A stretch of 64,000 bases of DNA from sequence record NC_070870.1; one strand, written 5' to 3'. The translations under genes were made by a program, and so were the position numbers. Positions 10,607 to 23,260 of this stretch are shown piece by piece; positions within the stretch are counted from its first letter, which is position 1, and every line of letters starts with the position of its first letter. The notes beneath the pieces were generated by a model. The model had not been told where the DNA came from, did no database searches, and worked only from the letters and a program-made list of their open reading frames with translations. The DNA comes from Escherichia phage phi G17.

Positions 10607-10669
10607 TACACTGGCTTACTGTAGAGTAGGCTTCCTATATACGATATAAGTTTGAACAGGAAACATGCT

Positions 10670-13600
10670 ATGTCAACATTTGACCGTCTGGCAGGTTTCG
10701 CAGACAGCATCACTAATGCTAAGCAAGTCGATGTCTCTACTGCAACCTCTCAGAAGCAAGCTGCTCAAGGGCAAAGCCCTTTCCAATTAACCCCAGAGAA
10801 TGCTTACAATCTCCAGACTGGACGAGTAGGTAATCTTGGAACTGGTGCATTCGAACCAGGTTCACTTCAGGCTGATTTCACTCAAGCCTCTCCATTAGAA
10901 ATTATTAATAAGTACGGTAATGAGCAAGGTCTACAGATTCTTAATAGCCGAGCTAATGCTGCTGATGTTGTACGTCAGGACTTATCTAAACAGCGTACTA
11001 ACGCAGAAGCATTTGGCGATACTCTTTCTGGTGTTGGTCTTGGTGTTGCTAATACCCTTGGGGGCATTGCTGCTCTTGGCACAGGTCTGGTCAATGATAA
11101 TGCCGGGGCATCCATTGCTTCCGGGATGGATTGGCTGAATGAAGGTGTACGCAATCTCCAGTCTGATGCACTGAACGCTAATCGTAATGTTGTTCAGAAT
11201 CAGAACCAGATTACTGCACAAGAGAACCAGAAACTTTACGAACAAGATATTAAGAATGGGGAGAATGACTTAGTTGCCTCCTTGTCTCGCATTGGTCGTG
11301 ACGCTTTTGATTCTGTTGCTAATACACTTGATAATGGTATGGCTGCTTCCGATGGACTGAGTGAAGGCATTGGTTCCCTCTTTACCGGTGGCCCACTTAT
11401 CCGTGGTGTATCTGCACTTGGTAAAGTAATGGTAGGAGGTGATAAAGCTGTTAAGGGTATTACCTTAGCTGCTGAGTTAGGTTCACGTCCTGCACAGGTT
11501 GCACTGTCTGCCGGTCGTGTTGCTGCACCTGCTGTAGCAATCGGTGGTATGGAAGCTGGTGGTGCATACCAACAGACTGCTTCTGAAATCATGAAGATGT
11601 CCCATCAAGAATTGGCAAGTAAGTCTCCTGTTTACCAACAACATATTGCTGATGGTTTATCTCCTGATGAAGCACGTCGTCAGACTGCATCTGAAACAGG
11701 TATCACTGCTGCTGGCTTAACTGCTCCAGTTGCTGCTGCCACCGGTCCACTGGTATCTCGCTTTGAACTTAACCCACTTAAGGTAGGTTCACTGGCAGGT
11801 GCTGGTTCTAATATGCTGCGTGAAACAGTTGAAGAAGGTATTCAATCCGGCTTCGGACAGTTCGCACAGAACACTGCAATCAAGGAAAATGTTGATGCAT
11901 CCCGTGATACCCTCAAAGGGGTCGGTGAACAAGCAGGTCTGGGTGCACTCTATGGCTTCGGTAGTGCTGGAGTTGCTCAAGCTCCAGGTGCAACTGTTAA
12001 AGCTGCTGGTGCTGCCGTTGCTCCTGCTGTACGTACTACCCTGGCTGGTGCTTCTCTGGTTGGTAATGCATTAGCAAAAGCTGCCTCCCCTATTACTAAC
12101 ATCTTGGTTCAACGTGGCGAAGAAGTTGCTAAGCGTAATGAACAAGCGTCCCCTGTAGCAGATGCTACGGTTAGTGCTGCTGCACAGGAAGCTACTGCTC
12201 AGTCAGAACAAGCACAAGCAACTGTACAGGAAGCAGTAGATGCAATGGACATTACTCCTGAAGAGAAAGCTGCTGCTACTCAATATGCTTCTGACTTAAC
12301 ACAGGCAATGAACTTTGACCCAGTAGAAATAGAACAAGCTAATCCAGCAATCCGTGAAGCTGTTTCTGGTTCCACTAACCGTGTAGAAGCTATTCAGAAG
12401 ATGGCTGACTTGGTTAATACTGCTGAAGACCCTAACGTTCAAATGGAAGCTGCAATCCAGATGTATGACAATATTATGTCCATGGATAGCTTCATTAACC
12501 GTGACCCGGGTGCTCTGGCTAATCTGGAACAAGGTTCTCCTGCTGCTGCAATCGTAGACCAGTTCTCTGGCTTGATGGCTAACGTACAGAATACACCGAA
12601 GGTACTTCGTGCATTCCGTGCTATCCATTCCATGATTCAGGAACAGGCTGAAGCAGGTAAACTGAAAGCTACTGAAGAAGCTAACCAAGCCCAAGCAAAC
12701 AACATTGCTATGGCTGCTGATGTATCTCCAGAAGTGCTGGATGCTGATTCAGTGAACATGGTTCTGAAACACGCTAGCGAAGGTAAGATTACTCTGGGGA
12801 ATCGTCAACGTGCTGCCCTGCAATCGGCTGCTGCTGTCTTACAGGGTGCACGCGAGTTCGACGCTAAAGCAGAAGAACTAGGCTTACGACCTCAAGACAT
12901 TGTTAGTAAACAGATTAAGACCGACGAGTCTCGCTCTAATGAAGGCCAGTACTCTGCGTTGCAACATGCGAAACGCATTCGTTCTGCGTACAACTCTGGT
13001 AACTTCGATTTGGCCTCCGCTTATCTGAACGACTTTATGCAGTTCGCCCAGCACATGCAGAATAAGGTCGGAGCGTTGAATGAGCATCTGGTTTCGGGGA
13101 ATGCGGATAAGAATAAGTCTGTTCACTATCAGGCTCTCTCGCCTTCCCGTGAATGGGTACGTAGTCGTACTGGCCTCGGTGTCAATCCTTACGATACCAA
13201 GTCTGTTAAGTTTGCCCAGCAAGTAGGACTGGAAGCCAAGACCGTAGCTGATATTGCTAACGCACTTGCTACGGCTTACCCGGAGCTTAATGTTTCTCAT
13301 GTGAATGTTACCTCGTTGGATTCACGTCTGGACAAGCCAGCTGCCCAGGTAGTTAAAGAGTTCCGTCAAGGTGGTCTTGATGCCACTCAGTCTCAACAGA
13401 CTAATGAACCAGTGAATCAGGTTGATGAAACTCCTGCACCAGTGCAAGAGACTGCCCCCACTGTACAGCCTAAAGCTGAGCCGGTGGTAGAAAATAAACC
13501 TGCTCCTACTAAGGATACTAGTTCAAAAACAGAAGAAGTCTCTACTACTAAGTCTGAAACAGTGGATGCTACCCTCACTAATGAGGATACCACCCAGGAA

Positions 13601-16600
13601 GTAGCTGAAACTAAAACGGAAATGGAATCAGTGTTCCCTGTCTATAACAATGAAAAAACACCGAACCAGTTCCTGAAAGCATTTACTCTGCCGGAAGAAC
13701 CTAAGTCCCGTACCATTGGTTCTGAATCTCCTTTGACTGATGTTAAGCAAGCACTGTCTTCTGCTGCTCGCTTTGAAGCATTCACTCAAAAAGAAAATAA
13801 CGCTCTCACAGGTGATGTGATGAAACGTTATCAGGACTTGATGGACTTTGGTGAAACACTGAAGACTACTTTGTCTGACCGTCTGGCTAAGTTCCTTGCT
13901 AACAAGAATGTTGGTAAACGTTTTGCAGAAGGTACTGAAGCTAACCGTTGGGTAGGTGGAAAACTGCTGAATATCGTTGAGCAAGATGGTGATACCTTTA
14001 AGTTCAATAACCAGTTGTTAGAGACTGCTGTACTTGCTGGTCTGCAATGGCGACTGACTGCTACGCAGAATGCTGCCGTTAAAGATATGAAAGACGTAGC
14101 TGCTATTACTGGTGTAGAAGCATCTCTGTTACCAGAAGGTATTCTGGCTGAGTTTGAGAATGCTCAGACTCTGGTTGAAGCTACTAACTCACTGGCTCAA
14201 AAGATAGAATCCTATTGGGGTTTGAATCGTAATGCTAATGCACCACTGGGTTATACCAAAGGTATCCCAATGGCAATGGCTACAGAGATTCTGTCTTCCC
14301 TTATTGAGATGGGTGAAGTTAAAGAGTCTATGCTGGATGTGTCTGAAATTGACCCAGCCTCTAATAAGACTGTTGGTCTGTATACCATTGAAAAGCTGGA
14401 TGACAACGATGCTATTAACAAATTCCCTACTGCTATTGAGGAAGCTGTCCTCTTAGAACCAGAAGAGAAAATGTACTTTGGTGATGACATTCCTTCCGTG
14501 GCTCAAACTCAGTTACGTAACCCTGCTGTTAAGAATACCCCTGAACAGAAAGCTGCACTGAAAGCTGAACAGGCTACTGAGTTCCGTGTACACATGCCGA
14601 TGGTTAACTTCTATGAAGCAATGGGCCGTGAAAACATTCTGGAACTGATGGGTGCTGGTACTCTTAACCCTGAGCTACTGAACGTGAATACTGCTAAGTC
14701 ACTGGAAGGTAAAAACCTATCCGTGTCTATGGCATATGATTCTCTGTTCGGTGTTATCAGTCAGGTACGGGAACAAGAAGCAGGACTGGATACTCCTATC
14801 CATTATGGTTACAACATGACCCGTGTCGGTCGTATGCAGATGCTTGGCAAGAATAACCCACAATCCAGTAAACTGGTTCGTGAAGCAATTCTGCCAACCT
14901 TCTCTACTATCGACTTGAGTAATGAAAACAGCCAAACGTTCTCTGACTTCCAGTTAGGTCTGGCTCAGGCATTAGGTATCAAGGTACATAACATGTCCCG
15001 TGAAGCTATGTCTGAAAAGTTGACCAAGGCTCTGGAAGGTAATCTGAAACCTGCTGTTGATATGATGGTTGAGTTTGATAAGTCTGGTCACTTACCTACT
15101 GATGCAGTAGATATTCTGAAGACTTCTCTGGGTGGTGATAAATCCTTCGTAGCTCTCATGGCTCTGATGGAATATGCCCGTTACCTGAACAGTGACGACC
15201 GTGCCAACTTTAATACCCCACTGTACGTTGAAGCTGATGGTGTAACCAACGGCCCAATCAACGCAATGGTATTAATGACTGGTGGTAAGTTCACTCCAGA
15301 CTGGATTAAGAACACTGCTAAAGGTGGTCTTTTCTTTGATAAAGCTGGTAAGACTATGAACGAACATCGTTCACAGGATGACAGTGTTGACTTGTATGAA
15401 GCATCTACCAATGGTCTGCAACAAGCACTGAATGAGTTACGTACTACTTACCGTAACAACGTTCCTGTTATGAACCAGATGAATCATCTCCAGAAGATAA
15501 TGGACCTGTTCATTAAAGACTTTAACCTGAATGAAGACGGTACTCTGGACCTGAAACGTGGTATCGCTAAGAACCCACTCACCATTACCATCTATGGTTC
15601 TGGTGCACGTGGTATTGCTGGCAAGATGGTTAGTGCAATTACTGATACCATCTATGAACGCTTCAGCGACGTTCTGCAAGCACGTGCTGCTGACCCTAGC
15701 ATTTCCCCAGCTATGGCAATGTTTGGTAAGGAGGCTGCGTCTGAGGCCGATGCTCAGGCTATGCTGGATACTTTCCTTACTTCTATGGAAGCACTGACAG
15801 GTAATGTTCCAGTTATGCGTAAGGGTGAATTGTCTATTCAGCAAGCAGAAGGTGCACTGACTGGTAAGTTAGACCCTCAGAAGTTTACTGTATCTGGCAA
15901 TGCTCTGAAGAACTTACAAGAGAACATGCTCCACCTGTTCGTTGAACCAATGCGTACCGGTATCCAGAATACTGTTGGTGAAGGTCTGATGCACTCTACT
16001 GAGAACTTGCAGAAGGCTACCCAGATTCAATCTCTGGTATTGCAGGATATGTTCCAACAAGCAGTACAGGCTAAGCTGGCAGAAAAAGAAAATGACCCAA
16101 CCTGGAAGAAGGGTGATTTCTTAACTCAGAAAGAACTGAATGAAATCCAGGAATCATTATCTCCACTGGCCCCAATGATTGAGACTGGTTCACAGACTTT
16201 CTACATTGCTGGTAGTGAGAATACTGATGTTGCTAACCAAGTACTGGCTACCAACTTAGATGACCGTATGCGTGTGCCAATGAGCATCTATGCTCCTTCA
16301 CAAGCAGGTGTTGCAGGTATTCCATTTATGACCATCGGTACTGGTGATGGCATGATGATGCAGACTCTTTCTACTATGAAAGGTGCTCCGAAGAATACCC
16401 TGAAAATCTTTGATGGTATGAACATTGGTATCAATGACATCACTGATGCAAGTCGTAAAGCAAATGAGGCTGTATACACTTCTTGGCAGGGGAACCCTAT
16501 CAAGAATGTTTACGACTCCTACGCTAAGTTCATGAAGAATGTAGACTTCAGCAAACTGTCTGATGAAACTAAACAGGCTATCGCTAAGTCTGCTCTGGAA

Positions 16601-19600
16601 TATGACCAGCGTGAAGGTGCTACAGATGACCTGTTACGTGTAGGTGCTGAGCAGATTGAACGTAACCTGCGTAACATTGCTCTGGGTGTAGATATTCGCC
16701 ACAAAGTAATGAACCAGGTACAGACCACTGTTGACCAGATGGCTGCTGTAGGTGCTCCTTATGTGAACAACGGTAAAATCTCTCTGGAAGGTCTGACGGT
16801 AGACCAGCAAGTAGCTAAGCTGAACGAACTGTTTGATGCTGAATTAAACAAGCGTCGTGATGCAGTACGTGCTGCTAAAGCAGAACCAGTGAAAGAAGTA
16901 CCGGCAATGGAACAAGTTGGTCGTGTGCTTAAGTCAGGTGTACGTCTGCTGTCCAATACTGCCATTACTAAACTGGCTAAAGAGATGTCCCCAGAACAGC
17001 AAGCAGTATTGAAAGAAGTACAGAACTCCCTTGCTGCTAAAGACTACAAGGTTGTTTATGGTACTCCTGCTCAACTGGATGCTTATGCTATTGAGAAGAA
17101 CATTACTCGCCCAGCACCGGAAGATATTGAAGCTGCTGAAGCAGGTAATGCATACGGCTGGACTAACTTTGATGATAAGACTATCTACTTAGTTACCCCT
17201 TCCTTAGAGACTCTGGTTCATGAATTGGTACATGCTTCTACTTTTGAATCTGTACTGGCTCACTACGAGGGTACTCCTAATGAAGCAGTCCAGAATATTG
17301 AAGACTTGATGAACCAGTTCCGTGCTCTGGATGTTAAGGATGAATCCCCGGCAGTACGTGAAGCATATGCTGATGCACTCAATACCATTAACGGTCACTT
17401 GTCTAATGGTTTCATTGAGCCAGCAATGTCTAAAGCTGCTGCACTGAATGAGTACATGGCATGGGGCTTAACCAACCGTGAACTGATTGGTAAGCAGAAG
17501 AAGACCACTGCACTGAAAGCTATGGTTCAGTCTGTGTATGAAGCAATTAAGCGTCTGGTATTTGGTCGTAAGAAAGCACCTGTTAATGCAGATGATATGT
17601 TCTCTGGCTTACTGTTTAACTCATCTGTAGTTATGCGTGGACAGGCTCCTACTGCTGCTGTATCCAAGGACACTACCTTGTTCCATAGCAAAGCATATGG
17701 TGACAATACTCGTCTGGAAGAGTTAGGGCAGACCTTTGATAAGCTGATTACTAACTACATTGGTTCTGAACCAGTACAGCAAGTAATCCGTAAAGGTAAG
17801 TTTTCTGATGCAGTAGTGAATGCAACTAAAGTAACCCGTGATGTTCAGGCTCATGGCTTTACTATGAATATGCAGGAACAGCGACTGTTCACTAATATTG
17901 TTGCTGCTTTGGCTACTGAAGCTGCTATTAGTCCGGCTGCTCTTTCTCGTGCACAGGAATATTATGCACATGTTACTAAGAATCTGACTGTTGAAGCATT
18001 CATGACAGACCCGGATAGTACTAACCCTGCTGACCGTTATTATGCACAGCAGAAGTTCGATACCATCATGGGTGCTAATAATATTGAGTATGATGCACAG
18101 GGTCGTTCTTCCTTACTGCCTACCTTTGTGGCTCTGGCAATGGTAAGTGAAGATGTACGTAATGTACTGGCTGACATTCCTGTTATGAAAGCAGATAAGC
18201 AATCCGGTAATACCGTTGATGCAATGCTGACTAACATTGGTACTGCTGCAATGGCTAGCCTGAATGCTCGTGTAGCAGGTGACACTAAAGCTACTAACGT
18301 ACAGGAAGGTATGGATGCACTGGCTCAGACAATCATGCAGACTAGTCTTAATGCACAGTCATTCTATGATTCCATTGCTACCCCTAGTGGTAATGCTATC
18401 GACCGTGCTAACCAGTATCTGGTGGACTCTATTGATGTACTGTCCACCCGTGCTTTAGATGGTGCACGTGAGGTTGCAGCTAATACCAAGAATCCGTTGG
18501 TTAAGGGTGCTGCTCATGCTGCTCAACTGGTAGCTGCCATTGCTACAGAGAAGAATGGTGCAATCGTAGCTGAAGGTGTTATGGCTGCAATGAACCAGGG
18601 TAAAGCATGGCAACCTTTCCATGACCTGGTTAATGACTTAACCGGTCGTACTAAGAGCAATGCTTCTGTGTATGATTTAATTAAAGCAGTTCGTGCACAG
18701 GTACAGGCTGACCGTCAACAGTTCCGTGAACATCTGCCTACCACTATCGCATCTAAGTTCAGCCGTAAGCTGACCAATGATGAATGGAAAGCAATGCACA
18801 CTGGTATGGGTAAAACTGATTTGGCTGTTCTGCGTGACACTATGTCTCTGGCTGAAATCCGTGACTTGCTGACTGACCAGAAGATTGTTGACCGTGAAGT
18901 GAATAAGCTGGAAGCAGATTTGCAGAAGCAAGCTGGTCGTAACTGGCCCCTGATTAATCGTAAATCTAAGCAACTGGCTCAGTACATGATTAACGGTACA
19001 GTCGGTAATAACCTGCTGCGTAATGCTACTGCAATCTCCCGTATGCTGGGTGAACGTCAGGCTGCTCGCTCTACCGTAGATGTAGCTCAACTGGATAAAC
19101 TGATTACTCTGTATGCACTGGAAGCAATGAACAAGAAAGACCGTGAGATGTTATCTTCACTGGCTCAATCAGAAGTTGATGGAATGGACTTTGTTACTTC
19201 TTATCTGGTTGGTCAGCGTAAAGATGAAATGGCTAAAGCCAAATCTGATATGCGTGCAACCCTGAACCAGTACAAAGGGCATATCCCTAGCGAGAACAAA
19301 CAGGGTGTTAATCTGATTGTTGCTGAAGATAGTCAGTTTGCTGATTTGATTGAGAAGTCTTATGTACGTCTGGGTACTTATCAGGGTAGCTCTGCTAACC
19401 GTGGTCCGGCACGTAGCTACTACTTCGCACCAGTACAGGCACAGGCTCCATTCTCACAGGGTATCCTACAGAACGTTCGTAATACTGCTGGTGGTGTAGA
19501 CCTCGGCACAGGTTTTACGATGGGTTCAATGGTGGCTGGTCGTATTACTGACAAGCCTTCTGTAGACCGTATTACTAAAGCACTGGCTCGTGGTGAGCGT

Positions 19601-21022
19601 GGTAATGAACCACTGCTGCCTGTATATGATGACAAAGGTAATGTGGTTGCCTATGAGCAATCAATTGACCCTAACATGCTGAAGCACATTGAAGGCGAGA
19701 ATCACCTTGCCCGTGCAATCGGTGTATGGCGTGGTCGTCAGGTTGAAGAAGCTAAGGCACAGCGTTTCAACGATATGCTGATTGAGAACCTGCATAGCAT
19801 GTACGAGAACGACATTAAAATGTCTGCCTCTAATAAGTCCCAGTACGTGAACCTTCTTGGTTCTAAACTGGACCCAGTAACTGCTGATGCGCTTAAGCTG
19901 ATGAACAGTGAAACTCGTCAGAAAGCAGAGAGCCTGTTTGGTGAGGGCGAACTATGGGTACGTCGTGACATGCTGAATGATGCACTAGGTTATCGTGCAG
20001 CTTCAGTTGGTGATGCATGGTCTGGTAACTCTCGTTGGTCCCCGGAAACTCTGGATACCTTCAAGAAAGCTATGCTGGGTGTATTCGGCAACCGTGCTTA
20101 TAAGTACACAATGGGTGGAGAGAACCTGGTTCAGAACTTAGTTAAAGAAGCCAAGACTCTGATTGTAGTTAAGTCAGTAGTCGTACCTGCTGTTAACTTC
20201 TTGGCCAACCTTTACCAGATGGTTGCTCGTGGTGTACCGGTTAAGAACATTGCTAAGAGCATTCCACAGAAAACTGCTGAGATTAACCAGTACCTGAAAT
20301 CTCGTCTGCGTCAGGTGGATGCAGAAGCAGAATTACGTGCAGCTACTAACCCGAACCAGATTCGTAAACTTAAGGCTGAGATTCAGTCCATCTCTGATAG
20401 CCATAAGCGTATGAGTATCTGGCCCCTGTTGGAAGCTGGTGAGTTCTCTTCAATTGCAGATGCTGGTATTGGTCGTGATGACATCCTGATTACTGAGGGT
20501 AAGATTCACGAATACATGGATAAGCTGGCTGATAAGTTGCCCAAGTCTGTACGTACTGCTGGTCGTTATGCACTTATCACTAAGGATACTGCTCTGTTCC
20601 AGGGCATCCAGAAGACGGTTGAGTACTCTGACTTTATTGCTAAAGCAATCATCTACGATGAACTGACCCAGCGTAAAGGTAAGACTCGTGAAGAGGCACT
20701 TGGTCGTGTAACGGAAGAGTTCGTTAACTATGACCGTCTGCCTGGTCGCTTCCGTGGATATATGGAAAGCGTTGGTTTAATGTGGTTCTACAACTTTAAG
20801 ATTCGTTCTGCAAAAGTTGCAGTATCCATGATTCGTAATAACCCAGTACATGCAGCAATGGCTATGTTGGCTCCAACTCCTACCATGTTTGGTAATGTTG
20901 GCTTACCTATTCAGGACAACATCTTCAGCATTGCAGCACAGGGTAACATGGGTTACTCGTGGGGCTTTGGTCAGGGACTTCGTGCTCACAACCTTAACCC
21001 TTGGCTGAACTTAACTAACTAA
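10670..21022 (+). CDS. Virion-encapsidated RNA polymerase (vRNAP, about 3450 aa)
   Basis: Giant ORF; central region carries T7-like motifs: VEADGVTNGPINAM (motif A-like), RGIAKNPLTITIYGSGARG (motif B, R/K...YG), KIFDGMNIG (motif C-like); track start at 10652 is TTG, an ATG at 10670 has AGGA 9 nt upstream. Confidence 0.85.
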   Translation: MSTFDRLAGFADSITNAKQVDVSTATSQKQAAQGQSPFQLTPENAYNLQTGRVGNLGTGAFEPGSLQADFTQASPLEIINKYGNEQGLQILNSRANAADVVRQDLSKQRTNAEAFGDTLSGVGLGVANTLGGIAALGTGLVNDNAGASIASGMDWLNEGVRNLQSDALNANRNVVQNQNQITAQENQKLYEQDIKNGENDLVASLSRIGRDAFDSVANTLDNGMAASDGLSEGIGSLFTGGPLIRGVSALGKVMVGGDKAVKGITLAAELGSRPAQVALSAGRVAAPAVAIGGMEAGGAYQQTASEIMKMSHQELASKSPVYQQHIADGLSPDEARRQTASETGITAAGLTAPVAAATGPLVSRFELNPLKVGSLAGAGSNMLRETVEEGIQSGFGQFAQNTAIKENVDASRDTLKGVGEQAGLGALYGFGSAGVAQAPGATVKAAGAAVAPAVRTTLAGASLVGNALAKAASPITNILVQRGEEVAKRNEQASPVADATVSAAAQEATAQSEQAQATVQEAVDAMDITPEEKAAATQYASDLTQAMNFDPVEIEQANPAIREAVSGSTNRVEAIQKMADLVNTAEDPNVQMEAAIQMYDNIMSMDSFINRDPGALANLEQGSPAAAIVDQFSGLMANVQNTPKVLRAFRAIHSMIQEQAEAGKLKATEEANQAQANNIAMAADVSPEVLDADSVNMVLKHASEGKITLGNRQRAALQSAAAVLQGAREFDAKAEELGLRPQDIVSKQIKTDESRSNEGQYSALQHAKRIRSAYNSGNFDLASAYLNDFMQFAQHMQNKVGALNEHLVSGNADKNKSVHYQALSPSREWVRSRTGLGVNPYDTKSVKFAQQVGLEAKTVADIANALATAYPELNVSHVNVTSLDSRLDKPAAQVVKEFRQGGLDATQSQQTNEPVNQVDETPAPVQETAPTVQPKAEPVVENKPAPTKDTSSKTEEVSTTKSETVDATLTNEDTTQEVAETKTEMESVFPVYNNEKTPNQFLKAFTLPEEPKSRTIGSESPLTDVKQALSSAARFEAFTQKENNALTGDVMKRYQDLMDFGETLKTTLSDRLAKFLANKNVGKRFAEGTEANRWVGGKLLNIVEQDGDTFKFNNQLLETAVLAGLQWRLTATQNAAVKDMKDVAAITGVEASLLPEGILAEFENAQTLVEATNSLAQKIESYWGLNRNANAPLGYTKGIPMAMATEILSSLIEMGEVKESMLDVSEIDPASNKTVGLYTIEKLDDNDAINKFPTAIEEAVLLEPEEKMYFGDDIPSVAQTQLRNPAVKNTPEQKAALKAEQATEFRVHMPMVNFYEAMGRENILELMGAGTLNPELLNVNTAKSLEGKNLSVSMAYDSLFGVISQVREQEAGLDTPIHYGYNMTRVGRMQMLGKNNPQSSKLVREAILPTFSTIDLSNENSQTFSDFQLGLAQALGIKVHNMSREAMSEKLTKALEGNLKPAVDMMVEFDKSGHLPTDAVDILKTSLGGDKSFVALMALMEYARYLNSDDRANFNTPLYVEADGVTNGPINAMVLMTGGKFTPDWIKNTAKGGLFFDKAGKTMNEHRSQDDSVDLYEASTNGLQQALNELRTTYRNNVPVMNQMNHLQKIMDLFIKDFNLNEDGTLDLKRGIAKNPLTITIYGSGARGIAGKMVSAITDTIYERFSDVLQARAADPSISPAMAMFGKEAASEADAQAMLDTFLTSMEALTGNVPVMRKGELSIQQAEGALTGKLDPQKFTVSGNALKNLQENMLHLFVEPMRTGIQNTVGEGLMHSTENLQKATQIQSLVLQDMFQQAVQAKLAEKENDPTWKKGDFLTQKELNEIQESLSPLAPMIETGSQTFYIAGSENTDVANQVLATNLDDRMRVPMSIYAPSQAGVAGIPFMTIGTGDGMMMQTLSTMKGAPKNTLKIFDGMNIGINDITDASRKANEAVYTSWQGNPIKNVYDSYAKFMKNVDFSKLSDETKQAIAKSALEYDQREGATDDLLRVGAEQIERNLRNIALGVDIRHKVMNQVQTTVDQMAAVGAPYVNNGKISLEGLTVDQQVAKLNELFDAELNKRRDAVRAAKAEPVKEVPAMEQVGRVLKSGVRLLSNTAITKLAKEMSPEQQAVLKEVQNSLAAKDYKVVYGTPAQLDAYAIEKNITRPAPEDIEAAEAGNAYGWTNFDDKTIYLVTPSLETLVHELVHASTFESVLAHYEGTPNEAVQNIEDLMNQFRALDVKDESPAVREAYADALNTINGHLSNGFIEPAMSKAAALNEYMAWGLTNRELIGKQKKTTALKAMVQSVYEAIKRLVFGRKKAPVNADDMFSGLLFNSSVVMRGQAPTAAVSKDTTLFHSKAYGDNTRLEELGQTFDKLITNYIGSEPVQQVIRKGKFSDAVVNATKVTRDVQAHGFTMNMQEQRLFTNIVAALATEAAISPAALSRAQEYYAHVTKNLTVEAFMTDPDSTNPADRYYAQQKFDTIMGANNIEYDAQGRSSLLPTFVALAMVSEDVRNVLADIPVMKADKQSGNTVDAMLTNIGTAAMASLNARVAGDTKATNVQEGMDALAQTIMQTSLNAQSFYDSIATPSGNAIDRANQYLVDSIDVLSTRALDGAREVAANTKNPLVKGAAHAAQLVAAIATEKNGAIVAEGVMAAMNQGKAWQPFHDLVNDLTGRTKSNASVYDLIKAVRAQVQADRQQFREHLPTTIASKFSRKLTNDEWKAMHTGMGKTDLAVLRDTMSLAEIRDLLTDQKIVDREVNKLEADLQKQAGRNWPLINRKSKQLAQYMINGTVGNNLLRNATAISRMLGERQAARSTVDVAQLDKLITLYALEAMNKKDREMLSSLAQSEVDGMDFVTSYLVGQRKDEMAKAKSDMRATLNQYKGHIPSENKQGVNLIVAEDSQFADLIEKSYVRLGTYQGSSANRGPARSYYFAPVQAQAPFSQGILQNVRNTAGGVDLGTGFTMGSMVAGRITDKPSVDRITKALARGERGNEPLLPVYDDKGNVVAYEQSIDPNMLKHIEGENHLARAIGVWRGRQVEEAKAQRFNDMLIENLHSMYENDIKMSASNKSQYVNLLGSKLDPVTADALKLMNSETRQKAESLFGEGELWVRRDMLNDALGYRAASVGDAWSGNSRWSPETLDTFKKAMLGVFGNRAYKYTMGGENLVQNLVKEAKTLIVVKSVVVPAVNFLANLYQMVARGVPVKNIAKSIPQKTAEINQYLKSRLRQVDAEAELRAATNPNQIRKLKAEIQSISDSHKRMSIWPLLEAGEFSSIADAGIGRDDILITEGKIHEYMDKLADKLPKSVRTAGRYALITKDTALFQGIQKTVEYSDFIAKAIIYDELTQRKGKTREEALGRVTEEFVNYDRLPGRFRGYMESVGLMWFYNFKIRSAKVAVSMIRNNPVHAAMAMLAPTPTMFGNVGLPIQDNIFSIAAQGNMGYSWGFGQGLRAHNLNPWLNLTN

Positions 21023-21923: not shown

Positions 21924-21949
21924 CTTGGATGTCCAATTAACAATATTCA

Positions 21950-21976
21950 AATAAAAAAGTCCCTCCGAAGAGGGAC
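21950..21976 (-). terminator. Intrinsic terminator (minus strand) GTCCCTC-ttcg-GAGGGAC + TTTTTTAT
   Basis: Perfect 7-bp stem, UUCG-type loop, 6-T run on minus strand. Confidence 0.7.
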
Positions 21977-22135
21977 TTAGTAGCTTTTAATAGATAGCTG
22001 TATTTGAGCATTATAGTCTGCTCATACTCACACTCTTCTGTCGAAGAATATGTTTACAATATCTAGAGTGCCGGACTGTCTTACCGGCATTGTCTTTAGA
22101 GTGCTAAGCAATCAGGACTATGTTCTCTATTAATG

Positions 22136-22211
22136 GGTGCCCACTACTGGATTTGAACCAGTGACTTTCCGATTATTAGTCGGTTGCTTTCCCCGTCTAA
22201 GCTAAGTGGAC
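22136..22211 (-). tRNA. tRNA gene (minus strand), apparent anticodon AAT (Ile-like?), CCA not fully encoded
   Basis: By-eye cloverleaf: acceptor GTCCACT/AGTGGGC (one G-T pair), D-stem GCTT/AAGC, anticodon stem CCGA/TCGG with loop CTAATAA, T-arm ACTGG-TTCAAAT-CCAGT, discriminator A. Confidence 0.6.
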
Positions 22212-23260
22212 ATAATAGGGTGAGTCATGCCAGGCTCTAACTGGCTCCTTCTTCGCAATCCTTACATACCCCTACATAATTATTGCGTTAAGCTTTTTTG
22301 TTTAAGTTTAAGTGAAGGTGTTCTTGCTGACTCATAATACTTTCAATTCAGAGTAGCACTCACACAGGATTGTGCCTTTGAATACCGGGAAGTATAAACG
22401 AGTGCTACTTTGAATTGGTTCCCCGTTTCTAATACACGGACGGGGACACTCCATGGTCGTTTGATAATCAGGACGACTCACTCCTGACTGAGGTTACGCT
22501 GTTAGGCGACCATCAGATACGCTTCTTCGTTTGCATTTATGTTATTGGTTCGTTTCTAAAAAACCGCATAATCGCTACGAAAACTATCGGGGAGTGCACT
22601 AGCTCTGGGCCACGCTCGTGGACATCGACCTTCCTTCCACAGCTAATCAACTAATACACTCCCCTGTTAGGAAGCTGCCAGGGATTCCACCTGGCTCCAT
22701 CTGTTTTTAAAGTCACTCAGATATCGTCTGGACTTCCCATTGCCGTGGGATGTTGATAGAAATGAGAGGTTCTATCGGGGAGTACACTTACTCGACTGGT
22801 TAAACTATATCTATCCAGCTCCCCAGCAAATGTACTCCCCGATAGTCCATAATAGGAGGGAGGGGACGAATCCTCCCTTTATACCCTATGTTGCATGTAA
22901 GATCTAACAATTCGATGCTGTAGATAGCGATACTATCCGACATTAAACCCAGCCCCTGGGGGCTTGTGTGATTATAATGCTCAACATTGAGCGGTTAGTT
23001 GATAAGGGATCTGAAGCCTTATCCCAAAGATAATAACCTTTGGGATATAGCCTAAGATTCAGAAATGGCCCCTATATGGAGAGGCCATTGATTAACCCGA
23101 ATGTTGCTTTACATTTGCTGTGATAACCAGTTCTTAAAATAGTCTGTCTGACGGATGGGGAGCCACCCCTAGCGTCAGTGCCATACGGCAAAGATTAAGT
23201 TAAGAAAGGTTATGATAGGAGTTCCTATCTCAAAGGATTCTGACAGAACCCTTCACGATA
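22212..23260. other. ORF-free, highly structured region with repeated motif CTATCGGGGAGT(G/A)CACT and multiple long inverted repeats
   Basis: No ORF of 60 aa or more on either strand for about 1.05 kb; 15-bp perfect inverted repeat 22772..22786 / 22831..22845; paralogous copy at 22584..22600 with partner CACTCCCC at 22657..22664; many further stem-loops. Confidence 0.5.

Follow-up and report, generated by a model that had tools for sequence, protein, structure and literature searches.

A transfer-messenger RNA-like tag module without a conserved tRNA half in the tRNA region of Escherichia phage phi G17 and in unrelated phages

Analysis of a 64,000-nucleotide stretch of Escherichia phage phi G17 (NC_070870.1), referred to below as the window, revealed in its transfer RNA (tRNA) region, at positions 22213-23260, a unit on the minus strand that resembles the message half of transfer-messenger RNA (tmRNA) and that we tentatively propose to act as a phage-specified tag template. 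The phage is a G7C-like (Gamaleyavirus) N4-like member of the Schitoviridae with ECBP1, Bp4, PhAPEC5/7, PBM-3 and Mimir124 as its closest relatives, and its virion RNA polymerase is encoded by an open reading frame (ORF) of 3,456 aa on the plus strand (10652-21022). The tRNA region lies between minus-strand genes and is syntenic with an unannotated gap of about 1.5 kb in phage N4, in which ARAGORN calls four tRNA genes. As a preliminary description of the window had claimed, no credible gene is present in 22213-23260; the longest internal ORF has 55 aa, and a 60-aa ORF on the plus strand from 23212 leaves the region and overlaps a gene on the opposite strand. The tmRNA-like unit and its parts are the following:

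22420-22588, minus strand: tmRNA-like unit, the conserved mobile core of the region, with a leader of about 54 nt, a 10-codon tag, an H5 hairpin and two pseudoknots
22502-22534, minus strand: tag reading frame, GCA AAC GAA GAA GCG UAU CUG AUG GUC GCC UAA, giving ANEEAYLMVA*
22488-22516, minus strand: H5-like hairpin whose loop holds the stop codon; its outer helix is CUGA (22516-22513) / UCAG (22491-22488)
22455-22487, minus strand: PK2, an H-type pseudoknot with stem 1 UCAGGA (22487-22482) / UCCUGA (22473-22468) and stem 2 GUCG (22477-22474) / CGAC (22459-22456)
22420-22454, minus strand: PK3, an H-type pseudoknot with stem 1 AUGGA (22454-22450) / UCCGU (22440-22436) and stem 2 UCCCCG (22446-22441) / CGGGGA (22425-22420)

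The tag frame runs from a resume codon (22534-22532), preceded directly by AUAAAU, to a stop codon (22504-22502), and its product ANEEAYLMVA compares with ANDENYALAA, the ssrA tag of E. coli. Homologues were taken from a scan of IMG/VR, which gave a sample of at least 87, drawn partly with a search pattern that fixes codons 1-3 and 7. Among 56 unique coding sequences the frame has 10 codons in all save one, which has 11, and no frameshift was found. Synonymous and conservative variation affects the last codon (GCC, GCU or GCG), position 5 (all four GUN codons) and position 3 (GAU, GAC or GAA), the stop codon varies between UAA, UGA and UAG, and the family consensus of the tag is AN[DE][DEN][VAM][VYF]L[MA][AV]A. 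The divergent FelixO1-like member SeKF_80, which lies outside the search pattern, encodes ANDNAFRVAA* with a synonymous change of AAC to AAU, and as a control 35 chance matches to the pattern in bacterial genomes gave tags of random length. Working ClpXP degrons include the C-termini LVA and LAA, and the phage tags end in MVA, AVA or MAA, which resemble known degrons of the ssrA type. An alternative leader peptide read from an AUG (AUG CAA ACG...) was rejected, the pattern of variation matching the GCA frame. A frame that evolves like a decoded ORF, yet has neither a start codon nor a Shine-Dalgarno sequence, suggests a role in trans-translation.

Regarding the likeness to tmRNA, the family profile aligns with E. 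coli ssrA only over the tag region, in exact register, with resume codon on resume codon and stop codon on stop codon. The Rfam models of permuted, alpha and beta tmRNA match the unit at 17-30 bits in every lineage, and when the ARAGORN threshold is lowered to 90% of the default, the program picks up the resume consensus and lists the phage tags. Covariation was assessed in an alignment of 35 sequences of the non-N4 subfamily, in which standard pairs occupy 99.7% of cells, compared with 23-46% when the partners are slid by 1-3 columns, and two-sided changes are seen in 8 of 21 pairs; five helices are supported, including both stems of each pseudoknot, and the observed covariation score was reached by none of 500 shuffles. 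The outer helix of H5 is 100% paired, with a compensatory exchange between AU and GC in 15 of the 35 sequences. Across the family, PK2 has at least six stem-1 variants (UCAGGA/UCCUGA, UCAGGG/CCCUGA, CGAGGG/CCCUCG, CAAGG/CCUUG, UGAGG/CCUCA and UGAAGG/CCUUCA) and four stem-2 variants (GUCG/CGAC, CCGA/UCGG, CCAG/CUGG and CCAA/UUGG), every one compensatory, and in PK3 compensatory changes occur in both stems within the non-N4 subfamily and also among N4-like and Vi1-like members. These comparisons indicate that the unit derives from the mRNA-like domain of tmRNA, and they establish it, at the level of sequence comparison, as a conserved mobile structured RNA under coding-type constraint and without a conserved tRNA half.

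The unit was detected in 266 of 50,697 phage records, from N4-like, T1-like, Vi1-like, FelixO1-like and lambdoid phages infecting Klebsiella, Salmonella, Escherichia, Serratia, Shigella, Cronobacter, Erwinia, Enterobacter and Aeromonas, and is almost never annotated. Unrelated lytic phages, whose genomes are compact, keep it at 71-90% identity. Positions 22213-23260 have matches in 114 of 5,426 complete E. coli genomes, nearly all of them over the unit, and the one match inspected lies in a lambdoid prophage. In a lambdoid prophage the unit is situated downstream of Q, PR' and tR'. Of 100,044 species-representative genomes one carries the unit, in the chromosome of Pantoea agglomerans. tRNA genes lie on the same strand as the unit in about 60% of loci, and about 40% have no tRNA nearby. 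In the T1-like phage BUCT541 and in contig L072 a near-consensus sigma-70 promoter is placed for a start at the 5' edge of the unit, (GA)UAGUUUUCG, and N4-like and Vi1-like phages have the end of a long-stem cassette at this edge.

Regarding known systems, what defines a tmRNA is that one functional RNA combines a tRNA half with an mRNA half, and to our knowledge all known variants (standard, permuted, intron-containing and those without a coding sequence, CDS-less) keep the tRNA-like half. With the one-piece tmRNA (SsrA, RF00023) the unit shares the AUA at -6 to -4 before GCA, which we take to correspond to the frame-setting positions U85/A86 of E. coli tmRNA, a 10-codon tag beginning AN[DE] with a small hydrophobic end, the stop codon in the loop of the H5 hairpin and the H-type pseudoknots directly after it. 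It differs in having no acceptor stem, G3.U70 pair, T-arm, ACCA end or closing helix H2, in having two pseudoknots after the tag and no demonstrable PK1, in its length of about 170 nt instead of about 360 nt, in its confinement to phages and prophages, and in remaining sub-threshold in Rfam and ARAGORN. The two-piece tmRNAs of Alpha- and Betaproteobacteria and Cyanobacteria (RF04321, RF01849-51) likewise carry the message on a separate coding piece; their models give the best partial Rfam matches to the unit, and the beta-type resume-codon consensus is very similar. The coding piece of these RNAs, however, has the 5' acceptor strand at its start and is base-paired with an acceptor piece beside it, whereas neither a strand of this kind nor a partner is conserved with the unit, and the two-piece-like layout of the window, in which a T-arm is followed by GGGAGUG, was not found in relatives. 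In phage T4, the species 1 and 2 RNAs (rnaC, rnaD) are reportedly small, stable and structured non-tRNA RNAs within the tRNA region, transcribed together with the tRNA cluster and presumably freed by tRNA-processing enzymes; we know of no tag frame reported for them.

Phage-borne two-piece tmRNAs are known, for example in Melnitz (PMC9004378), and the tmRNA database holds 79 phage entries (PMC11915505). The CDS-less tmRNA-like RNA of mycobacteriophage DS6A, as far as it is described where it is cited (PMC11915505), also consists of one half only, but of the tRNA-like half, with no tag frame. No paper reporting these tags or a tmRNA-like RNA without a tRNA domain was found in the literature covered, from which subscription journals were mostly absent. 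A phage RNA that would keep only the tag-coding half of tmRNA thus apparently has not been described before, and the earlier judgement that the region holds an undescribed RNA element was upheld.

The unit is one part of a minus-strand mosaic of structured-RNA modules, in which BLAST comparison with relatives shows blocks conserved at 76-98% with differences in order and insertions. Listed from upstream to downstream on the minus strand, the other modules are:

22846-23260, minus strand: upstream block R5/R4, 91-98% identical in Gamaleyaviruses and, in part, about 80-87% identical in the kuraviruses SU10 and Bas86, with post-gene hairpins, an invariant UGUUAGAUCUUACAUGCA motif and a GGGAGG-AUUCGUCC-CCUCCC hairpin at 22878-22857
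22772-22845, minus strand: hairpin cassette H-B, a paralogue of H-A, with a 15-bp perfect repeat (about 21-26 bp with G.U pairs), z = -8.1
22672-22745, minus strand: M4, a tRNA-like remnant with a T-arm-like CCAGG-UGGAAUC-CCUGG followed by CAGCUUCC
22589-22664, minus strand: hairpin cassette H-A, with a stem of 14-16 bp, GGGGAGUGUAUUAG/CUAGUGCACUCCCC, around module B (22651-22605)
22344-22417, minus strand: hairpin cassette I3, with an 18-bp stem and a 38-nt insert, z = -4.1, and counterparts of about 76% identity in relatives
22213-22339, minus strand: M1, an oversized tRNA-like element with an acceptor-like UGAGUCA/UGACUCA and a T-arm-like GCCAG-UUAGAGC-CUGGC
22134-22212, minus strand: tRNA-Ile with anticodon AAU, called by ARAGORN and by Rfam (61.6 bits)
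22073-22124, minus strand: 52-nt block common to N4, 81-93% conserved in relatives including phage N4
21957-21978, minus strand: intrinsic terminator, probably the end of the tRNA-region transcript

All the sequence features listed in the preliminary description were found at the coordinates given there. The inverted repeat has CTATCGGGGAGTACA at 22772-22786 and its reverse complement at 22831-22845, separated by a spacer of 44 nt, and its arms can be extended to 21 nt at 90% complementarity; the paralogous copy of the motif, CTATCGGGGAGTGCACT, lies at 22584-22600 with its partner strand at 22651-22664. The stem-loops AGGGAGG-N8-CCTCCCT (22857-22878) and GATAAGG-N9-CCTTATC (near 23001), the adjoining tRNA and a terminator are likewise present, and the dense structure ascribed to the region is reflected in folding energies that lie well under the values for dinucleotide shuffles, with z-scores between -2 and -8.1. 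Both paralogous hairpins of the H-B/H-A type are more stable on the minus strand (-47.4 and -36.7 kcal/mol) than on the plus strand (-34.7 and -25.7 kcal/mol), because their wobble pairs are G.U on the former and A.C on the latter. Comparison with other phages revealed covariation in the hairpin stems, and these covarying stems, together with the G.U asymmetry, support the suggestion that the region encodes structured non-coding RNAs, read from the minus strand. The region is probably transcribed from this strand, with tRNA-Ile as part of the same transcript.

The order R5-R4-hairpin-unit-...-M1-tRNA-Ile is constant in relatives. Single blocks recur at 75-93% identity in unrelated phages, among them Vi1-like Ackermannviridae, T1-like siphoviruses, kuraviruses, N4, 9NA and lambdoid prophages; nearly all of these copies lack annotation, and most lie next to tRNA genes and on their strand. 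The long hairpins have the bases CUAUC...GAUAG or CACAAC...GUUGUG and carry variable inserts, among them degenerate tRNAs (phage Magnus, L101) and the conserved pseudoknot-like module B, and covarying cassette stems include GGGGAGUAC/GUACUCCCC, AGGUAAGAGC/GCUCUUUCC and AAUGGCAC/GUGCCAUU. For H-A, covariation of both the outer and the inner stem is seen in phage Menlow, which is Vi1-like, and in kuravirus SU10, and cassettes homologous to H-B, with covarying stems, lie directly 5' of the tag unit in relatives. Such patterns indicate that phage tRNA regions are assembled from exchangeable long-stem cassettes. Module B (22605-22651, minus strand) is a conserved insert of 47 nt; it contains an inner hairpin that covaries, and a pseudoknot may form between its loop and 3' tail (GG(U/C)C/GGCC). 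Its identity in Vi1-like phages is 89%, kuravirus SU10 has it on its own, and BLAST gives a match in an Enterococcus phage.

M1 and M4 are tRNA-like remnants; neither is called as a tRNA by ARAGORN or Rfam, and only acceptor-like and T-arm-like helices are kept. M1 is conserved at 97-98% in Gamaleyaviruses. The identity of M4 is 93% in phage N4 and reaches 98% in relatives; Mimir124, PhAPEC7 and L054 lack it, and elsewhere it lies downstream of the unit, directly before a tRNA-Cys-like gene. The same cassette positions hold tRNA-Cys, pseudo-tRNAs or degenerate class-II tRNAs in relatives. The degenerate tRNA-like elements that had been proposed for the region are thus present in part of it (M1, M4), while its main content, the tmRNA-like tag module, had not been recognised. 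ARAGORN additionally reports tRNA-??? with a 2-nt anticodon in relatives (L001, 1913-1988; L074, 6572-6646), beside tRNA-Ile or in tRNA arrays, with no counterpart in the window.

The only small ORF with family support has 47 aa (22943-22800, minus strand; PHROG 37481, gp54 of PhAPEC7) and is annotated in some genomes. It was rejected as a gene, with 6, 7 and 9 variable sites at the three codon positions, an in-frame stop in the relative L022 and a frame that is broken in kuraviruses, so that no small protein gene fills the gap and the annotation looks spurious from these sequence comparisons. Known RNA families were rejected as well: in Rfam scans at the gathering threshold and at E<=10 tRNA-Ile alone was returned, it alone reached a curated RNA threshold in the Rfam and ARAGORN scans, and no match to a riboswitch, ribozyme, GOLLD/ROOL, 6S, Y-RNA, AgvB or AsxR was obtained from Rfam. 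AgvB and AsxR are Hfq-binding prophage small RNAs of 51-60 nt at the moron site of PR', in convergent orientation (PMC4104026). They share with the unit its lambdoid-prophage neighbourhood, and CACAACA motifs flank the cassettes, but they have Rfam models of their own (RF02702, RF02703), neither of which was matched in the Rfam scans. Downstream of the unit in L004, L013, L026, L046 and further T1-like or prophage loci, CACAACA recurs at cassette bases and in the CA-rich spacer just ahead of the tRNA genes. AgvB, a prophage anti-sRNA, uses this motif, the GcvB R1 target consensus (PMC4104026), and these sites could be a GcvB sponge.

Some further features of the neighbourhood were recorded. 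The anticodon AAU of tRNA-Ile is unusual for bacteria and is shared by Gamaleyavirus relatives and the T1-like L031 and L059. Within 21947-22124 on the minus strand, a weak STnc100-like Rfam match (28.5 bits, gathering score 47) lies over the terminator. Group I intron matches of 49.8 bits (gathering score 50) occur in the related N4-like L022 (1791-2018 and 1264-1492) and L020 (2412-3164), where Rfam places them a few kb from the tRNA region, and in the records of PBM-3 (L001, 1-345) and PD205 (L002, 1-646) the giant virion RNA polymerase gene is labelled 'DNA polymerase'.

Regarding function, the favoured explanation, to which a probability of about 0.4 is given, is that the unit acts as a phage-specified tag template, or 'coding piece', in the trans-translation pathway, since decoding alone accounts for the frame, for the stop codon and for a C-terminus that resembles a degron. 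The region would be co-transcribed with tRNA-Ile on the minus strand, and cutting of the long-stem cassettes at their bases would release a stable RNA of about 170 nt, which in T1-like phages would start at the same 5' edge from the sigma-70-type promoter. Serving as tag template, this phage RNA may sustain or redirect ribosome rescue during infection, a benefit that would fit the association of the unit with phage tRNA genes. The further proposition that the template is used although no tRNA-like domain is covalently linked to it or encoded next to it, the partner in trans being for instance host Ala-tmRNA/SmpB or a tRNA-like cassette of the phage, is considerably more doubtful; if true, phages would rewrite the degradation tag on stalled proteins during infection, by a new mode of trans-translation.

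A number of results weigh against the tag-template explanation. Trans-translation as now understood requires a tRNA-like domain joined to or base-paired with the message, and the template would require such a partner, none of which was found: ARAGORN, Rfam and three explicit covariation tests gave no conserved tRNA-like domain accompanying the unit, ARAGORN at default settings called no tmRNA in 89 contexts, and no conserved 7-bp acceptor stem with G3.U70 and a 3' (A)CCA goes with the unit. Calls of tmRNA made by ARAGORN under relaxed settings borrow the T-arms of non-homologous tRNAs or pseudo-tRNAs, from a different neighbour each time, and the M4 T-arm is optional and changes position among relatives. 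In T1-like phages a hidden one-piece tmRNA, with a 5' GUGGUG and a hairpin followed by CACCAC, was rejected: three natural variants of the 5' strand have no compensating change, and this strand falls within the spacer of a TTGACA-17-TAGATT promoter. Pairing of the unit with host tmRNA was likewise rejected, the duplex energy being no better than that of shuffled sequences (z = -0.45). The unit also scores below curated tmRNA thresholds, in the window (26.9 bits against a gathering score of 47 for RF04321) as in the other lineages, and no contiguous helix backed by covariation was found in the 54-nt leader as an equivalent of PK1, where complements of 5 bp differ in register by subfamily (CUUUG/CAAAG or UUAUG/CAUAA). 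The partial dependence of the homologue sample on the search pattern belongs with these points.

Other candidates for a tRNA-like domain fared no better. T-arm-like hairpins (M4, an R4 hairpin and cassette inserts) are optional, non-homologous between lineages and differently placed. A complete permuted tmRNA, seen by Rfam in the window as the M4 T-arm, CAGCUUCC, a 6-nt linker and GGGAGUG with a G3.U70 pair, was rejected as a general feature because this module order is unique to the window and M4 is optional. The H-A/H-B cassettes have G3-C70 and not G3.U70, no free 3' end and variable inserts, and H-A was rejected also because it occurs without the tag unit in kuravirus SU10. With respect to a two-piece layout, with a base-paired acceptor piece just upstream, only the window has an upstream T-arm, relatives having it downstream or not at all, and in T1-like phages and L072 the promoter consensus sits immediately against the unit. 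No bacterial tmRNA ancestor sharing the module was found among the 100,044 species-representative genomes.

The missing tRNA-like domain would be expected if the RNA were a decoy or competitor that mimics the message half and, without being translated, titrates SmpB, S1, RNase R or a defence sensor, so that host trans-translation is dampened or diverted. The strong conservation of the resume context and the pseudoknots is in keeping with such a role, and the reverse reduction is on record, the CDS-less, tRNA-domain-only tmRNA of phage DS6A being cited as an inhibitor of host tmRNA (PMC11915505). A decoy, however, needs no fixed frame of 10 codons, no synonymous-type variation, no hydrophobic degron-like C-terminus and no stop codon maintained through UAA, UGA and UAG, and this explanation is regarded as rather unlikely. 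The same frame and stop codon are left unexplained if the unit is a cis-acting, tmRNA-derived 5' leader of phage tRNA or non-coding operons, serving for example in Rho protection or as a processing guide. Its position at the 5' end of a tRNA operon after the promoter consensus in T1-like phages and L072, and within the late-operon leader of a lambdoid prophage, would agree with a leader, but the roughly 40% of loci without a nearby tRNA and the internal position of the unit in N4-like phages do not, which makes a cis-acting role unlikely.

The abundance of tRNA remnants (M1, M4 and the pseudo-tRNAs of relatives) and the unstable module order could also suggest that the region holds decaying leftovers of tRNA genes and of a tmRNA gene once captured, and that it no longer has a function. 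Covariation and frame conservation fit poorly with decay: five helices carry compensatory changes, the identity of 71-90% is kept in unrelated lytic phages and none of the 56 unique tags has a frameshift, and a remnant is therefore considered very improbable. A replication origin or packaging site, suggested in the preliminary description and agreeing with a non-coding, repeat-rich region, can practically be set aside. Neither iterons nor AT-rich unwinding features were found, what is conserved being RNA helices whose G.U pairs are strand-specific, together with a reading frame and tRNA-like folds, and the modules move between unrelated phages that differ in replication and packaging.

The tag-template explanation can be tested directly with existing genetics, and many of the phages concerned are therapeutic candidates or members of model collections (BASEL, G7C, N4-like). 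The unit offers a concrete explanation for hundreds of unannotated gaps beside phage tRNA genes. It is restricted to phages and prophages and shows coding-type constraint across at least five unrelated lineages, whose hosts are Escherichia, Salmonella, Klebsiella, Serratia and relatives. If it is decoded, trans-translation would obey wider rules than thought and phages would be able to edit the proteolysis tag; if it is a decoy, it would represent a new anti-host or anti-defence RNA.

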